Assembly: GCA_008369845.1 (NCBI GenBank)
Contig: MRSU01010452.1
Span: 1 to 64,000 of the forward strand
Length of the DNA stretch: 64,000 nt
Direction of reading: 5' to 3'
From: Trichomonas gallinae
Taxonomy: Eukaryota
A program made the position numbers and the translations under genes. The notes beneath the pieces are model-generated. The model was given only the letters and a program-made list of their open reading frames with translations. It did not search any database and had not been told where the DNA came from. Shown piece after piece: positions 26,431 to 64,000 of this stretch (position 1 is its first letter; each line of letters begins with the position of its first letter).

Positions 26431-29400
26431 ATGGACGCAGTCCCGGTCCTGGACATTACAGACCCAGGCATCGATGAATTCGTTGAGTTTGACCCAGATG
26501 AGACCGAATTCGTCTACGACACACAACCTATTTATCATGAAATTTTTATGAAATATAACTTGACACATAACGAAATATCTTTATTTAACATCTGGTATAC
26601 AATCCACAAATTCCACCATTATATGATACACTCGCCGAATATACAGACAATTGATAGAGAAATATTTTTGCAAAATATCAAAATTTATGAATTATTATGC
26701 GACAAATTAGATATCTTCGCTTCCATTAAAGATAACTTATATACGACACTTCAAGAAATCACACTGACATCGATGGATTGTTTTGATAATTTTTATTTTG
26801 ATATATTTTTAACAGAATTTGAAAAGCATAGAACGATATTTAACAAGCAAGTACAAATTGTGAATCATTATCATCGTGTTTCTAAGCACCCACCACAAGT
26901 ATTTACGGAAGAATATCCAATTTTTCAAAAACAGAAGAGGATCATGGCAGCTCTCATGTCATTCTTGAAAGATGAAATGTTGCCACGATCTTGTAATAAG
27001 ATTATTCGCAAAATACAAAAGCTACGGGAATTATTTATTTTAATTATCGAAACATCTCCGATAGATGCGGATAAACTTAAGACTGCAGGAACATCAGCTT
27101 TTAATAGTATCATCACGCTTGTTCTCGACCTCAAAGGTATGCTTCTCGGCCGCCAACTCTTAAATATGTCATTACAATTCATCCCGCAGCCGAAAATCGA
27201 CGCCCAGAAGCGAAGCTTCATCAAGAAGGACGAGATCTTCAAGCAGCAGGTAGAGCTCGAGAAGAACTACATAGAACTAGCGGAGTCAAGGGGAACAGAA
27301 AGAATCGCGCAACAAAATTCCGAGGATCTTAAAATCTCCGAAAGTCTGTTCAACCAAATTTTAACTCTTGACAAAAATTCAGAGCTCATCCAACGCGCTG
27401 TGGAAATGCTGAAGCAGGGCATAGAGAACCAGGATATCAAACCTGACATCTCGAAAAACTCGTTTTTAGAAGTTCTTGACTCGCTCAGAAAATTTCTCAA
27501 AAAAATCAACTGCATTATGCCGGAAATAGAGTTGTATGAGATTAAAATAGCACTGGGACTCGCTTCTGCGACACTTACACAGGAAAAATCTGAAATAATT
27601 CATAAGTTTATCTCTTCAATTGATCAGTTTTACGGACCGATAACAAAAGTGTCTCAATTAGCCAATATACAGTCGATTTTCAAGCTTATCAAGGAAATTG
27701 ACGAATGCAACGAATTATGTGAATCGTTCGAAAAAGTTTTTATTCCGTTTCAAAGGATCATTGAAGTCATCGAGTTGACCAATGACCTCATTAGCCGCAA
27801 ACTTACTGGTATTAAATACACTCCATTAGCTTTAGATTTTGATAATGCAGAAAACTTAACGATTCCTGCTGAATTTCGAGAAAAGTTCAACAGCCTGTGC
27901 CAGTTTTTGCATGAGAATAATATCGATATTTCAAAAAACCAAAATTTCGAATTCGAAAATCTGACCATCCCGAATATTTACTCAATACTCAAGGACTTAA
28001 ATGGACTCCTATCCGAGCTTCCTTTTGCGCCAGAATTTGAGTTCGCTCACAAGTTTGTCGAGAATTTATTTGATACACAAAAAAATTTCAAATATTTTTT
28101 TCAAATAGAAATGGATTTCATCAGAGTGTCTAAATCAACGAGTATCCCGAATATCGATAAGATCCAAAATGACTTAAAATTAATCAGATGTTTAGATTCA
28201 ATATATTTTATGCTCGATAAGGTCCGCACTATATCGTATGAGATAGCTGTCCAGAACACATATTTAAGGCTTGGGTACATTGTTAATGATCAATGCGACC
28301 ACTTGAAAAATGTTTCATTAATTAAACCATTGAATCCCAAGCATCTTCAAGATATTATTTACAAACAGAGCCTGCTCAAGCTTGTTTTCCTCATGAAGAT
28401 ATATTGGCCAACGCTATTAGAACTTGAGGAATTGAATCAAACAAGACATTTATTTCGTTTGCTAGTTAAATGCCTTCAGGATAAGCAATTTGAGACACTA
28501 ATGCCACTATATGAATACTTTAATAGCAAGAATTCCGAAGATATTCCACAAAGTGAAAATATAATGGAATTATGTCTTAATTTGTTAATGATTTCCACGA
28601 GAATCAACTATGAGTATGGATGGATCAATGAAAAATATGCAAAACCAACTATTCATGATTTATTAGAATATTTTTATAATTTTAAGATTATTGAAAACAT
28701 TGATTCGATTTTCGACCCACTTGAAGAGTTTATAGTCAATCTCAATTCACCAAAGCTTTATAATAAGTTCACTTCATTGAAATATGGAAGTTCATCATCA
28801 CAGTCGCTCATTGAACTAGCGCTCTATGTAATTTCCGAACCCAATCTAACCTATGATATCAAGAAATTCGTTGAAACCCTTTCTCGCGTTGCAATTTTCG
28901 TATCCAACATTGAAGGTTTGGACTTTGCGGCAAGTTTAGTAGTTAGGCAGATCCAGTCGGACTTCATAAAGCCATATGCAGTAGCATCTTTCAACCTTAC
29001 CCGTTTCAGTTTCATGTTTTCTGATCTACTCTTTTATCTCAACACAGCAGGCATAATCAGCTCATCGGAGTCATACAAAACAATACAGATGGGAATACAA
29101 TTGAAGAACATTCATCCGCCAAACTTAGTTTTAGGGACAGAAGTTAAAGATATCCTGCAAAACATAAAAAACGCAGCCAATTTCATGTCCAACTTCTGCA
29201 CAAAGGACAATGCTGCAATTCAGCGCATGTTTAATGCCCTAAAGACTGCAATTAACTTCACAATTTCAAATTCTGAAGTTCCTCTTTGCTTTTTGTCTTC
29301 CATCCAGGAAAAACTATTTTCTGGTGAGAATGTAACCGATGACTGCGCAATTCTGCTCACTTATTTCGACAAAAACGATACAAATTATTCTCATATTCAA

Positions 29401-58918: not shown

Positions 58919-59273
58919 ATTTAATTTTGTGTTGTTTAAAAAATATGTGATTTTGTTATTAATGAATCTTATATGTCCACTATATTACTGTTATTAGTTA
59001 TATTAAGTTTAATAATTCAATTGATAATTTGAGAGTTTGAAAATCTGTCATTTTGTTATATATTTTGTAGATTTTGGAAATAATCAGACAAATATGCAAC
59101 AACCAATAATCAAAATTGTTCAAAATCAAATTGAAAATATTTTGGAAATATTGTTTTAAAACAAATGTGCTTGAGCTATGCTATTAGCTAAAATAACAAT
59201 ATTGTTGTCAACATAATCAAACAAAACATGATTTATACATACAAAAACAAGATAAAAATAAGTTTCGATTCAT

Positions 59274-60254
59274 TCATTTAAAAGCAGCCGAATAATTCAG
59301 TCTTGTGAATGAATCCTGCTCACTTATCAAACGCTTCAACTCTTCATTTCTTCCTCTTAGCTCATTTATTTCTTCTTCCATTTTTGAAAATTCTTCAAAC
59401 AAATGATATGATTTAGATTCGTCTTCTTTGGGGACAAGCGACGACTTAGCAATAATCATTCTTAATCTAGTAATATCTTCGTTAATTTCTTGAATTTTTT
59501 CGCGATTATGATTTGCAATACTTTGATACATCTCCTCTGTTGTTTTTAGCTCGAAAATCTGCTTGTTTATATCATTCTCGTATTGCTCTCGTTCTTGTTG
59601 GTATTTTCTAGAGATTTGGTCCATTTTTTCTTTGTGTATTTTTTCGATTTCGACAATTTGTTGTTTAAATTTCTGATTTGCTTCATTTGACTCTCTCTGT
59701 TGCCTTTTCTTCTCGTTTATTGTATCCTCAATCTGCCCAGCAACAGCAATAACTTGTTGGTTTCGCTGAGTAACTAATTTACTAATTGCTGTGTCTATTG
59801 AGTCAACAACTGATGTATATTTTTCAGACAACTTCTTTGCACGCGTAAATCTATAGTGTTTATCGTTAAAGTCGCCAGAAATGATAAATTTTGCAACAAA
59901 ATCTTCTGTATCTTGTAAGGCCGTGCGTAACTCATTGTGAACATATTCTAGCTCCTTCTCATGTTTTATTTTGAGTTTGTTAGCTTCAGAATTCATAATT
60001 TCGATAATTGCAGAAATTTCTTGCTGATATTCCTTTCTATTATTGTCTCGCTGATATGTGAGTGCATCTATCTCTGATTTACTCCTTAAATCGTCATCTC
60101 TGATCTTTTTTTCGGTATCCTGAATTTCTCTTTGTACTTCAGCCAATTCTTTGTTTGCTTCGTCTATCTGGGTCCTCAGCATCTGCACAAGCTCTTCAGT
60201 TGTCTGTCCTTTCTGTGCATTTTTCGTTGCCGGACGTTTATGGATTCCATACAT
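59274..60254 (-). CDS. Coiled-coil protein
   Basis: 326-aa heptad-rich ORF. Confidence 0.8.
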   Translation of the reverse strand: MYGIHKRPATKNAQKGQTTEELVQMLRTQIDEANKELAEVQREIQDTEKKIRDDDLRSKSEIDALTYQRDNNRKEYQQEISAIIEIMNSEANKLKIKHEKELEYVHNELRTALQDTEDFVAKFIISGDFNDKHYRFTRAKKLSEKYTSVVDSIDTAISKLVTQRNQQVIAVAGQIEDTINEKKRQQRESNEANQKFKQQIVEIEKIHKEKMDQISRKYQQEREQYENDINKQIFELKTTEEMYQSIANHNREKIQEINEDITRLRMIIAKSSLVPKEDESKSYHLFEEFSKMEEEINELRGRNEELKRLISEQDSFTRLNYSAAFK

Positions 60255-60716
60255 TCATTTATGGGTCTTCCACTAAAATACAGGGTCCATTATTTAAAAT
60301 TAGTTAACCAGGGTCTTACAAAAAAATAAAGGGTCCAAATTTTAAAAGAAGTAGTTGAGGGTCCAAATTTATTTATACGATATAGATATACCAACATTGA
60401 AATATGTTAATCATTATTACAATATTGAACGGAAGCACCGCGACTATTATTCCAATTCTGTTCAAACAACGAAATTGTATTTTATTTTCGTTATCCTTTT
60501 GATATTTTCGAAAACAAATTCAAAAAATAGCAAGCTTATGAATAATGTTGACTTATTACCGCATAATGTCAAATCGAGAAAAAATTTCACGGGCGTCGAA
60601 CACTAAAATAATAGGTTTAATAAATTATATTGTTAATGTATTTGTTATTTGTAGTAATAAAAATGTCATTTTAAATAAATAAACGGTTATGTCAGTTTTC
60701 TGTTAATTTTTTTCAA

Positions 60717-62636
60717 ATGGAAGCAGCCAATAAAATCCTCGAAATAGAAAGTCTTAAAGTAAAGAAATTTAGTGAAGTCCAGATAATGGATGTTTTCAAG
60801 AACTACCACGAAGCTTCTACACTTATTTTAGCCAAAAATTTAAATGTCGACGAAATTTGCGAAAAATTAACGAAAATGATCGAAGAAAAACTCATCAGTA
60901 TCCAATTCGTTATTAAAACAATTCTTCATGCAGCTGATATAAATTACAAAGAAAAGCAAAATCTTGCCAATTTAGCTTCTAAATTAAAAGAAAAATTCGA
61001 ATTTAAATTAAGAGAAAGAGATGAAGAAAACCTTCAGAAATTGATTGTACCAGAACAGGTCGACACTGAGTGTCCATTCTATCTGGTCAAAAACGATCTC
61101 GTTGACAAACTCAAAGAGAAAATTATCGACTTCGCAAAATTAATGACAGATGATAAAACATTGTTAGATTTCGCATGCAAGTACGGCTCACTTCAGTGTT
61201 ATGAGTTTCTCATCGAAAAGGGCTGCACAATCACAGATAACACAATCAAATACGCAATCCAGGGCCAAAACATGAAGATTATCGAAAAAATGGATAAAGA
61301 AAAAATCGGAAATTATCTTTCAGCAGCTATCTCTGTAAATAACAATGAACTTGCTGATTGGATTCTCGCCAATTATAAGGCAAAGGCTGTTACAGTCAGC
61401 CAGTGCATGGATTCATCAAATTTCGTTGCCGCATCTTTCTTTATTGAAAATGGATTTGATATCAAAGAAATGTGTGAAATTTTTTGTTATCATATAACGC
61501 TATTGAGGTTTGTTATAATATAACTATGTTTATCTTGAAATTAGAGAATTTATCAAATTTTAATAATGGAATTTGTTATTATAATATACGACAATTTATT
61601 ATATATAAATGAAATATATCATGTTTACATCAAAAGAATCCACTTTGTGTTGCAATTGAATTTAATTCTTTGGATATCGCAAAATTCTTAGTCGACTTCG
61701 GTGCTGAGACAAATTGCATTTATATTCATCTTTAACAGACAGAGAAATTCATTGTTATTTCAAAAAATTTATAATTTTCTTATTACGATATTCATTTTGT
61801 GCTTTTTCAAGCTTTCATTATTTTGTTATTTCGCAGTTCATTATATTTTCATTATGGTGACGTTCGTTTTTTAATTTTGAAGTTGAATTTTGTCCGTTAG
61901 CCATTGCAATCGAATGTAATTTACTTGAATTCGTCAATTTCCTTATCGAGAACGGTGCTGATGTTAATGTCACTTTAATTCATTATTTAATAATTTAATT
62001 CTTTATTAATTTATACTCACGTTCATTTTTACTTCATTGGGTTCATCATATTCTTAGAAACGCATTCATTTTGCTTTAATTGGGTTCATTTTATATTTTT
62101 AATGATATTCATTATTTATCAATGAAATGAGTCCTCTTAGTATTGCAATCGAACAGCATAACCTTGATATTGTTACTTCCTTAGTTGAACACGGCGCTAA
62201 TGTCAACATTGTTTTAATTTATTTTAATATTATCAAGTTCATACTTCATCTCATCACATTCATTATATTATCATAGCCAAATTCATTATTTCTATTTGGC
62301 ATTCATTAATATTTAATTGCACAATTTATCAAAATATAACAAATGCCCGCTTTCAATTGCAATTGTTGAGAAATCTGCTGACATTGCTTCTTACTTGATT
62401 AACCATGGCGCCGACGTAAACACAACAATCAGAGTCCACACAATTCATTTTATTCTTATAATGGAGTTTATCATTCATTCAATACGTTCTTCACTCTTTT
62501 ATGAAGTTTTTTGTTTGTTTTTGAGAAAAGCCTCTTCTCGCTCGCTAACGAAAACAGATTCGAAGATATCATTCCTGATCTTGTTGAACATGGCGCAAAT
62601 CAAAACGGTGGACGCTCAAGCTGCCGCATATTCTAG
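60717..62636 (+). CDS. DUF3447/ankyrin-repeat protein with CaaX end, in six coding segments: 60717-61478, 61628-61723, 61879-61977, 62118-62216, 62329-62442, 62523-62636 (junctions approximate)
   Basis: N-terminal LLDFACKYGSLQCYEFL...AIQGQN...NELADWIL, then five intact ankyrin repeats in shifting frames, ending SSCRIF*. Confidence 0.75.
61479..61627 (+). other. Intervening sequence 1 (~149 nt)
   Basis: AT-rich, in-frame stop, lies between GFDIKEMCE and HQKNPLCVA. Confidence 0.65.
61724..61878 (+). other. Intervening sequence 2 (~155 nt)
   Basis: Starts ATTCAT, lies between GAETNCIY and EVEFCPLAIA. Confidence 0.65.
61978..62117 (+). other. Intervening sequence 3 (~140 nt)
   Basis: Starts ATTCAT, lies between GADVNVTL and INEMSPLSIA. 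Confidence 0.65.
62217..62328 (+). other. Intervening sequence 4 (~112 nt)
   Basis: Starts ATTTAT, lies between GANVNIVL and SKYNKCPLSIA. Confidence 0.65.
62443..62522 (+). other. Intervening sequence 5 (~80 nt)
   Basis: Starts ATTCAT, lies between GADVNTTIRVHT and EKSLFSLANE. Confidence 0.6.
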
Positions 62637-63112
62637 AAAAAAAACCTAAGCTGCGATTAAAATTATTTTATTTTAAATTATCATATTGATATGAAAATGC
62701 AATATCTACGCACCATAGTCCTGAAATACAAAGCAGATGGTCCTAATATTGTATTTAATTTTAAGAAAAAAATTATCATGATTTAAGCCTCATAAAACAT
62801 ATCAACAGCTCACATAAATCAATAATGTATAAGAAAATCAACTTTATATATTCTAATTTAATGAAAATTAATTTCAACAAATTTTTTTTGAAAAAAATCA
62901 CTTTTGACTATAAAATACTCCATAACTCATCTATTTGCGTTTATGACATGTATGCTACAGCTCATTTTAAATTAAATTTGATTTATCAAATTAGAAAATA
63001 GAAAATAACTATTTTTAATTATAGAACATTCCATATAGTATAGAATTATATTAAATATTTGCGATGTGCAGCTTGGTATCAAATTTATCTAAATATTTTA
63101 TTAAATAATAGC

Positions 63113-64000
63113 TCAATTTCTAGGTACTTTAACCTTTGTCTTTCCAGACAATGGAACTGATGCCTTGGATGACTCAGGGCCAGGCTCTAAAGAAGCTTGT
63201 CCTGTTAAAAGTTTATAAGGAATTGTCATGAAAGCAATTCCAGCGCGTTTTAAGAGCGAGACTGTATACTTCTCGCCATATCTATCAGCACCGGAGATAA
63301 CATTGATCATTTTATCGCCGAAATCTCCGAGATTTACAATTTGACGGATATCTGGGTCCTCGAGGTTAATAAGAGCGAGGAGTTCACCCTTGAGAAGGAC
63401 CGTGATCCAATTATCATGGAAATCCCAATATCCGGACTTCCACTTAAGAAGACCGATTGTTTTAGAACCAACAACTGTCATGATGCATTTTTCGCCCGTA
63501 ACTGACACGACGACAACTCTGTCCTTGTCAACCTTAAAGTCAGCGATCGTTGGGCACATTTTTGATGTTGTTCTATAATATTCCTTGAATTCGCCATTTT
63601 CGAAGTAGAAAAGAGATTCCTGTTGCTGGATAAGGTATCCATTACCAAATGCAGCAATGTTTGATGCTGTAATCGGTAATTTATGCTCACCGATAACAAT
63701 TTCATCGTATCTGTTTAATTCTTCGTAAGCATTAAGCTTGATTTTGATTATACGTAACGAGCCCTTATGAAGTATGACTAATTCGTTTGGTTTTTCTGGA
63801 TTCATTGAACCAGCAAATGCAACAACTTCGTTCATGTTTGGATAACTGAACAGTGTGCAGCAGAATTGGTGTCCATTATCGTAAATACCGAATTTACCAG
63901 TTGAATCTTGGAAAATGACGCATGTTTCTGGGTGAGGATAGAATTCTGGTCTTTCTTCCTCAGGTAATGCTTGATGCTGAATAGAGCCATCGAGGCAGAT
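63113..64000 (-). CDS. Hypothetical protein, 5' partial (runs off the window)
   Basis: Frame stays open from 63835 to 64000; beta-propeller-like composition. Confidence 0.75.
   Translation of the reverse strand: MCLDGSIQHQALPEEERPEFYPHPETCVIFQDSTGKFGIYDNGHQFCCTLFSYPNMNEVVAFAGSMNPEKPNELVILHKGSLRIIKIKLNAYEELNRYDEIVIGEHKLPITASNIAAFGNGYLIQQQESLFYFENGEFKEYYRTTSKMCPTIADFKVDKDRVVVVSVTGEKCIMTVVGSKTIGLLKWKSGYWDFHDNWITVLLKGELLALINLEDPDIRQIVNLGDFGDKMINVISGADRYGEKYTVSLLKRAGIAFMTIPYKLLTGQASLEPGPESSKASVPLSGKTKVKVPRN

Follow-up and report, generated by a model that had tools for sequence, protein, structure and literature searches.

The five spacers that break the frame of a DUF3447-ankyrin gene at 60717-62636 are arrays of tiny introns separated by coding micro-exons, and not five single inserts. 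The blocks that make up these arrays have a defined length and register, and they are absent from a contig assembled from a related strain. A preliminary description had placed one insert before each repeat; each spacer was found instead to hold 4-7 blocks of 17 nt alternating with coding micro-exons. The gene sits in the window, that is, the whole 64-kb stretch of DNA that was analysed, which has 33% GC, is gene-dense and is nearly free of interruptions. It contains 51 ORFs of at least 100 aa, with products including gamma-tubulin, a coronin-like WD40 protein, Rabs and kinases. The earlier reading of an ORF with a DUF3447 segment followed by frame-shifted ankyrin peptides was borne out, as 60717-61523 is an ORF with DUF3447 at residues 170-239 (Pfam, E 3.9e-7). 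All five quoted ankyrin peptides were found, the frame changes from each to the next, and AT-rich stretches containing stops lie between them, as had been described. Five complete repeats had been claimed; four of the five match Pfam ankyrin models (best E 1.9e-5 to 5.2e-4), but the fifth, at 62523-62633, is a weak terminal repeat with no Pfam match at E<=0.01. The gene shares with the parabasalid DUF3447-ankyrin proteins their defining order, DUF3447 followed by ankyrin repeats, and the named members in the clusters of the gene's protein relatives are Trichomonas vaginalis proteins. The window probably comes from a parabasalid, and likely from a trichomonad. Word searches for relatives recovered just 1 and 3, and none was found among viral contigs. 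Between the divergent genes at 60254 (-) and 60717 (+), GGGTC(C/T) occurs five times in about 100 nt (60260-60370) and is perhaps a promoter element.

The processed form was found in X1, which is likely an RNA run. The comparison covered 59000-64000 of the window, and a single X1 contig of 1,404 nt, at depth 75 and about 96% alike to the window, spans 60724-62643 in six pieces and crosses all five spacers. Among three runs compared, X1 alone gave a matching contig, X2 and X3 giving none; the evidence for a processed form thus consists of assembled contigs from one run of one study and a different strain, and the RNA status of X1 is a guess. The contig does not simply skip the spacers. It retains 32, 35, 25, 21 and 11 spacer letters at the five joints (124 in total), and the letters skipped less those kept come to 119, 119, 119, 103 and 68 per spacer, or 7, 7, 7, 6 (+1) and 4 times 17. 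A dynamic-programming parse, with the letters taken in order, yielded 31 removed blocks in the spacers, of which 30 measure 17 nt and one 18 nt, with 2 mismatches in the 124 kept letters. When lengths of 10-29 nt without 17 were used, there were 6-21 mismatches per spacer or the spacer could not be fitted; one spacer was an exception, yet none of these lengths fits it better. In a shuffle control, 0 of 200 shuffles per spacer equalled the observed parse score.

All features of the gene lie on the forward strand. Exon 1 (60717-61478, covered by X1 from 60724) has 254 codons and carries DUF3447 and one upstream ankyrin-like repeat. Array 1 (61479-61630) has seven 17-nt introns starting at 61479, 61508, 61528, 61548, 61571, 61594 and 61614, with micro-exons of 12, 3, 3, 6, 6 and 3 nt, and the X1 parse of this array has no mismatches. 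It is followed by ankyrin exon 1 (61631-61723, 93 nt). Array 2 (61724-61878) again has seven 17-nt introns, at 61724, 61747, 61767, 61790, 61813, 61836 and 61862, with micro-exons of 6, 3, 6, 6, 6 and 9 nt; its parse holds one strain difference at 61765, and the placement of block 61747 is tied with 61749. After ankyrin exon 2 (61879-61977, 99 nt), the X1 parse of array 3 (61978-62123) gives seven 17-nt introns at 61978, 61998, 62021, 62041, 62064, 62084 and 62107, with micro-exons of 3, 6, 3, 6, 3 and 6 nt. Block 62064 assumes one synonymous strain difference, the alternative with zero mismatches being 62063 in phase 2. Ankyrin exon 3 (62124-62216, 93 nt) precedes array 4 (62217-62340), which was parsed without mismatches into six introns at 62217, 62237 (18 nt in this strain), 62258, 62281, 62301 and 62324, separated by micro-exons of 3, 3, 6, 3 and 6 nt. 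Ankyrin exon 4 (62341-62442, 102 nt) leads to array 5 (62443-62522), with four 17-nt introns at 62443, 62466, 62486 and 62506, the last without adenosine, micro-exons of 6, 3 and 3 nt and one synonymous strain difference at 62462 in the parse. All four ankyrin exons are found in the X1 contig and by Pfam. The last exon (62523-62636), also in the X1 contig, has the weak terminal ankyrin-like repeat and the TAG stop.

Joining the exons gives a frame of 1,392 nt and 463 aa with no internal stop, longer than the product of about 427 aa proposed before. The 26 micro-exons are 3-12 nt in size (12 of 3 nt, 12 of 6 nt, one of 9 nt and one of 12 nt), and their GC content is 41% vs 15% for the removed blocks. 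All 31 blocks can be placed at codon boundaries (phase 0). Among the 15 blocks that cannot be slid, 13 are in phase 0; one more can be placed equally well in two ways, and another is in phase 0 if a synonymous strain difference is assumed. Removal of the blocks does not restore the periodicity of about 33 aa that had been expected: the repeat periods are 45, 40 and 37 aa, whereas 33-34 aa is the most frequent period in the relatives, and thus the micro-exons encode lengthened hairpin loops. For 29 of the 31 blocks, a ribosome that read into a retained copy would reach a stop after 2-47 codons, so that block removal must be near complete.

It is very probable that the blocks are removed from RNA. 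The X1 contig runs from 7 nt past the ATG to 7 nt past the stop; the neighbour gene has its own contig at half the depth, with the stretches between them uncovered, though the filter can leave holes, and the run as a whole comprises 21.1 million letters in 71,730 contigs. All this speaks against the contig being DNA, whether an intronless allele, a retrocopy or a product of the DNA-level excision that the preliminary description had considered. The RNA status of the run being a guess, such a reading draws on the second organism described below, where close paralogous repeats occur with and without the insert, so that DNA copies gain or lose inserts. However, a retrocopy or an exact loss of 31 blocks would first require RNA splicing. 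In addition, the relative P0001 (from a 5,216-nt contig) is 95% identical and reads on into the first insert, and it has 8 of the 10 amino-acid changes listed for X1 in common with X1; close kin of X1 therefore keep the first insert. A DNA origin of the contig is thus improbable, and DNA-level excision unlikely. It is still less probable that the gene is a decayed pseudogene and the contig an artefact of assembly or reverse transcription. Split genes are numerous in trichomonad genomes according to a recent account (10.64898/2026.08.31.748405), but here 31 deletions of one length at codon boundaries restore the ORF, and the 17-nt length recurs 233 times in the DNA of the second organism, where no reverse-transcription step is involved. 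A synonymous bias also exists downstream of the first break: 9 of the 12 differences there (9 among those listed and 3 from the parse) are synonymous in the spliced frame, and upstream of it 18 of 28 are; 40 of the 66 differences between the window and X1 were listed. The view that the gene is functional and not decayed has held, the X1 contig reading through without frame breaks. At the end of that contig (62643), 7 nt past the stop, 12 letters do not match, which could reflect a strain difference, adaptor or further processing.

The blocks have the consensus RTTYATYWT...AT. Among 30 17-mers, position 1 is A in 19, G in 10 and T in 1, position 2 is always T (30), position 3 is T in 29, position 4 is C in 18 and T in 12, position 5 is A in 23 and position 6 is always T (30). 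Further on, position 7 is T in 21 and C in 8, position 8 is A in 18, position 9 is T in 26, position 16 is A in 25 and position 17 is T in 23. The ends are AT-AT in 14 blocks, GT-AT in 4, GT-TT in 3, GT-AG, AT-AC and AT-TT in 2 each and four other pairs in 1 each. A GT start is thus present in 11 of 31. It had been stated that no GT/AG pair near the junctions restores the frame, which needs correction, as blocks 61528 and 62041 have GT...AG ends; these are the only two, and 29 of 31 are without AG. Compared with the 5' sites of type B trichomonad introns, the blocks have T at +2 in 30/30, T at +3 in 29/30, Y at +4 in 30/30 and T at +9 in 26/30, with G at +1 in only 10/30. Positions 7-15 contain no invariant A, the best interior A being that at position 8 (18/30). 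Block 61790 has no A at all in positions 7-15. Block 62506-62522 (GTTTTTTGTTTGTTTTT) holds no A in this strain, though its counterpart in the X1 strain could contain one. As first described, the branch motif is absent: a scan of the window for the trichomonad ACTAAC...AG motif gave 0 matches. When the RNA folds of the five arrays were compared with shuffles, z was -0.03, -0.30, 0.02, -2.02 and 0.48, four of the five being no better than shuffles and none stable. In the window blocks, pairing between the intron ends would be limited to positions 1:17 and 2:16.

Inserts of the same length were found in a second organism. Metagenome contigs were searched with alignment A2 (12 of 160 proteins) and 80 of 95 loci were retained (L001-L080), most of them from three assemblies and seemingly from one AT-rich eukaryote. 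For a phosphofructokinase on one of these loci (L067), the species-named matches among 72 were Tritrichomonas foetus (59%), Histomonas, T. musculus and T. vaginalis, and third-position GC is 0.26 vs 0.35 in the window; the second organism is thus another parabasalid. Its successive ankyrin cores lie 99 nt (283 cases) or 116 nt (254 cases) apart, with 133, 215 and 232 nt occurring as sums. After deduplication, 233 of 248 frame-breaking spacings of up to 140 nt are exactly 116 (99+17) nt, and 5 more fit one or two 17-mers. At least one such spacing is present in 48 of 74 AT-rich loci. Stops inside the repeat cores are found in 4 of 560, and 224 of 233 inserts, if retained, would hit a stop before the end of the next core. 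The dN/dS of repeats behind a break is 0.56 vs 0.44 for the others, both values being biased low by the picking of cores. There are 227 distinct insert-bearing linkers and 143 after dereplication at 70%, which indicates that the length of the insert is fixed while its sequence drifts. A typical insert reads GTTGAGTTT... and is T-rich, with a consensus unlike that of the window: position 6 is mostly G, position 8 is A in 12% and position 16 is T in 74%. A 17-mer of the form GT...AG occurs anywhere in just 19 of the 227 linkers.

Of the 227 insert-bearing linkers, 133 have RTT on the codon boundary that lies 15 nt from the linker start, vs 2 of 233 intact linkers. This placement matches the register that RNA would fix in the window, although the DNA letters would by themselves also allow a start one base later. 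In register fits on the DNA of the second parabasalid, the unbiased fit gave phase 1 and paralogue pairs allowed offsets of 14-16. Near-identical repeats with and without the insert co-occur, their flanks differing at 3-7 of 60 nt, so that the insert has been repeatedly gained or lost. Chains of three blocks were not found in L001-L080 with the window profile, and the inserts there are mostly single. In L027 (1250-2500) and L029, linkers of 133 and 136 nt amount to two 17-nt blocks with a very short or absent exon between them and may be read as an early stage of array growth. The profile did not pick up degenerate ankyrin repeats in L035 (4900-5100) whose loops hold phase-0 candidates of 17 nt; the counts for the second parabasalid are therefore lower bounds. 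In the 116-nt linkers of L001-L080, the two codons preceding the insert are far more variable than the flanks among near-identical repeats, as expected of the tip of a diversified binding loop. One ACTAACACACAG at L009 (7748-7759) equals the type A 3' motif and hints at ordinary trichomonad introns in this organism.

The inserts are tied to ankyrin loops. A codon-only model, blind to ankyrin, was run over 555 kb of second-parabasalid loci; near ankyrin repeats it gave 48 gaps of 17 and 2 of 16, and elsewhere 3 of 17, 8 of 16 and 5 of 18, with no excess of 17 outside ankyrin. The 5' motif is not depleted in coding DNA, being at or above expectation in every frame of 32 window genes and 187 second-parabasalid genes. 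Thus, the blocks go with ankyrin loops, and the 5' motif by itself does not mark them. When the window was scanned with the intron profile, only the DUF3447-ankyrin gene showed chains of at least three blocks, and the single matches elsewhere were unconvincing. An in-frame 17-mer at 24902-24886 (-), with a profile score of 9.3, lies between a 36-codon ATG-led stretch (from 25010) and a 112-aa ORF (24885-24547); its excision would fuse both pieces, and it is the window's only plausible non-ankyrin candidate. Two other intron-like phase-0 17-mers, at 26530 (+) and 38721 (-), score 10.9 and 12.0 and lie within long intact ORFs.

Among 150 representative relatives, many end at an ankyrin loop with tails rich in I, V, H, Y and F. 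In the composition of the loop tails, VH is enriched 6.1-fold and FI 5.6-fold, and [IV][HY] is found in 14 of 47 tails. Three clusters among 26 hand-picked loop-tail relatives bear T. vaginalis G3 names (TVAG_004680, TVAG_272630 and TVAG_254550), and TVAG_004680 has about 60 such residues inside one ankyrin loop. The relatives P0024 and P0152 are 98% identical; one ends at the loop and the other continues across six such residues into the next repeat, a contrast suggestive of 17-nt and 18-nt versions of an insert. No peak of a +1-frame ankyrin signature 13 residues past the loop was seen in 160 proteins. At the protein level, therefore, it is only suggested that T. vaginalis may share such introns.

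How the introns might be cut out can be answered only tentatively. We lean towards a predicted length-measuring cut-and-ligate step, which would give the 463-aa DUF3447-ankyrin protein with its long hairpin loops. A nuclease or RNP would anchor on the 5' RTTYAT...T signal within a U-rich stretch, the second cut would fall 17 nt downstream of the anchored signal, and a tRNA/IRE1-type ligase would join the ends, the blocks being taken one after another. The ACTAA branch point and AG end of the known trichomonad introns would not be used. Since ordinary coding sequence often contains the 5' motif, an additional ankyrin-loop cue would be required for specificity. The absence of a stable fold in the arrays counts against an IRE1-like route, as IRE1 substrates form stable folds. 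The tips of ankyrin loops are the usual binding surface, and intron-plus-codon units could make these tips easy to lengthen, shorten and vary. Unspliced mRNA would yield a truncated DUF3447-only protein and could serve as a switch. Phase 0 can also be explained by descent, because duplicated intron-plus-codon units must keep the frame, and it does not prove a frame-aware machine.

A serious competitor, which we consider quite possible, is that the 17-nt blocks are a third trichomonad type of spliceosomal intron, with a 5' RTTY...T site, a loosely placed branch A, a 3' end chosen by distance, and tolerance of AT or GT starts and of AT, TT or AC ends. It would be the economical answer, as a new enzyme is unnecessary, and the assembly of a fully processed form is what efficient nuclear processing would give. 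The 5' end of the blocks has some likeness to that of type B sites, which are described as having W at +3, Y at +4 and T at +8/+9 (PMC12316389), and with 11/31 GT starts and 2/31 GT-AG pairs it appears to fit a spliceosome. There are also precedents on record for introns of 15-16 nt in Stentor (PMC9505925) and for mostly non-GT-AG introns in Fritillaria (PMC13326754). But AG is missing from 29/31 blocks, one block has no A, and no branch A is fixed; in Stentor it is reported at position 10 in 90.9% (PMC9505925). Known trichomonad introns require a branch site plus AG, the exons here would be 3 nt long between 17-nt introns, other genes do not avoid the 5' motif, and the inserts keep to ankyrin loops. 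The cut-and-ligate reading is narrowly favoured because no precedent that was found combines all these oddities, and trichomonad introns are reported to keep GT-AG and the fused branch site throughout (PMC12316389). A bolder and rather unlikely proposal is that parabasalids, including T. vaginalis, run a spliceosome-free mRNA splicing coupled to translation, by which hundreds to thousands of 'broken' ankyrin genes would be expressed. After an ankyrin repeat the ribosome would pause where a block begins with U-ending codons, the 17 nt that it spans from the paused codon would be excised and the mRNA religated, block after block, and stackable intron-plus-codon modules would make up the binding loops. 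A length of 17 nt comes close to what an 80S ribosome covers between its P-site codon and its edge. Such coupling would account for phase 0, for the T at positions 3, 6 and 9 in the window and, through the nascent chain, for the restriction to ankyrin; however, descent could also account for the phase, G predominates at position 6 in the second parabasalid, and a fully processed form was assembled. The preliminary description had proposed that whole spacers are removed or skipped by an unconventional route. An unconventional, non-GT-AG removal agrees with the blocks and with the X1 contig, but the spacers are not taken out whole. Frame shifts at every spacer would suit a skipping of five units, or a ribosome hopping over them on unspliced mRNA, but 124 letters of the spacers survive in the contig as micro-exons, in their original order. 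Given that a processed molecule exists, this reading has almost no likelihood, and ribosomal bypassing of an intact mRNA is not needed.

Trichomonads have been described as intron-poor; here one gene has 31 introns of another kind, and 74 loci of the second parabasalid have more than 230. If T. vaginalis shares such introns, many truncated ankyrin genes need re-reading. The same would hold for part of the long-standing split-gene and readthrough puzzle. Ankyrin genes are reported among the commonest readthrough classes in trichomonads (10.64898/2026.08.31.748405). If the introns are spliceosomal, a spliceosome able to process 17-nt introns between 3-nt exons with neither AG nor a fixed branch A would be new. 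A second mRNA splicing machine, if that is what acts here, would be new and also a parasite-specific drug target. Standard pipelines would miss 17-nt introns of this kind. By default STAR treats gaps of less than 21 nt as deletions. The 2025 survey of trichomonad introns describes the use of STAR defaults followed by the discarding of junctions without known motifs (PMC12316389). The gap default and the motif filter together would explain why such introns escaped it.

In the literature outside subscription journals, no description of 17-nt or ankyrin-loop introns in parabasalids was found. For T. vaginalis, the survey reports 63 introns, one per gene, all GT-AG and the shortest of 23 nt; the trichomonad introns it describes have type lengths of 23-28 or 56-196 nt and a fused [A/T]CTAA branch site at the 3' end (PMC12316389). 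There is a likeness to its type B introns, which come from the same lineage and are uniformly short and T-rich, with some similarity at 5' positions +2 to +4 and +9; as described there, they are 23-28 nt long and always GT-AG, no gene has more than two of them, all phases occur, and the [A/T]CTAA branch site is fused (PMC12316389). In contrast, the present blocks are of 17 nt, GT-AG in 2/31, without a branch motif, 31 per gene, in phase 0 and in ankyrin loops only. Neither the GT...AG ends, nor the fused [A/T]CTAA branch site, nor a length of 23-28 or 56-196 nt is thus shared with type A or type B. The tiny introns of Stentor and Fabrea are alike in a fixed length near the lower limit (15-16 nt) and in being U-rich, but these reports describe them as GU-AG introns that retain a fixed branch A and are spread over the whole genome (PMC9505925, PMC9004412). 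The blocks are fixed in length at 17 and not 15-16 nt, and the position of a branch A is not fixed in them. Fritillaria tunicates have non-canonical spliceosomal introns genome-wide, with the U2 spliceosome documented; as described, these show neither a fixed length nor stacking with exons of one codon (PMC13326754). In XBP1/HAC1, processed by IRE1 and tRNA ligase, the likeness lies in a short, frame-shifting, non-GT-AG mRNA intron and a possible switch, as far as the accounts go (PMC4687415, PMC5333776). Stem-loops of the IRE1 type at both cut sites were not found in the arrays, one of which has a z of -2.02. XBP1/HAC1 is a case of one intron in one gene, with paired stem-loops and a CNG'CAG-type site, whereas the present introns number hundreds, have no stable fold and bear a different motif. 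In translational bypassing the insert stays in the mRNA, but the X1 contig, if X1 is RNA, is without the inserts. Schistosome micro-exon genes, a route to protein variation in a parasite, have runs of symmetric micro-exons flanked by long canonical introns; the runs are common to both systems and the long canonical introns are theirs. The nonconventional introns of euglenids are longer and have paired ends. Extended end pairing is absent from the blocks, only two end bases being able to pair in the window and none in the second parabasalid. Like the present introns, those of euglenids are described as non-GT-AG and nuclear, with machinery that is unknown (PMC12501133, PMC11170887). The defining features that were tested failed for every intron family considered, and the inserts are likely an undescribed kind of intron.
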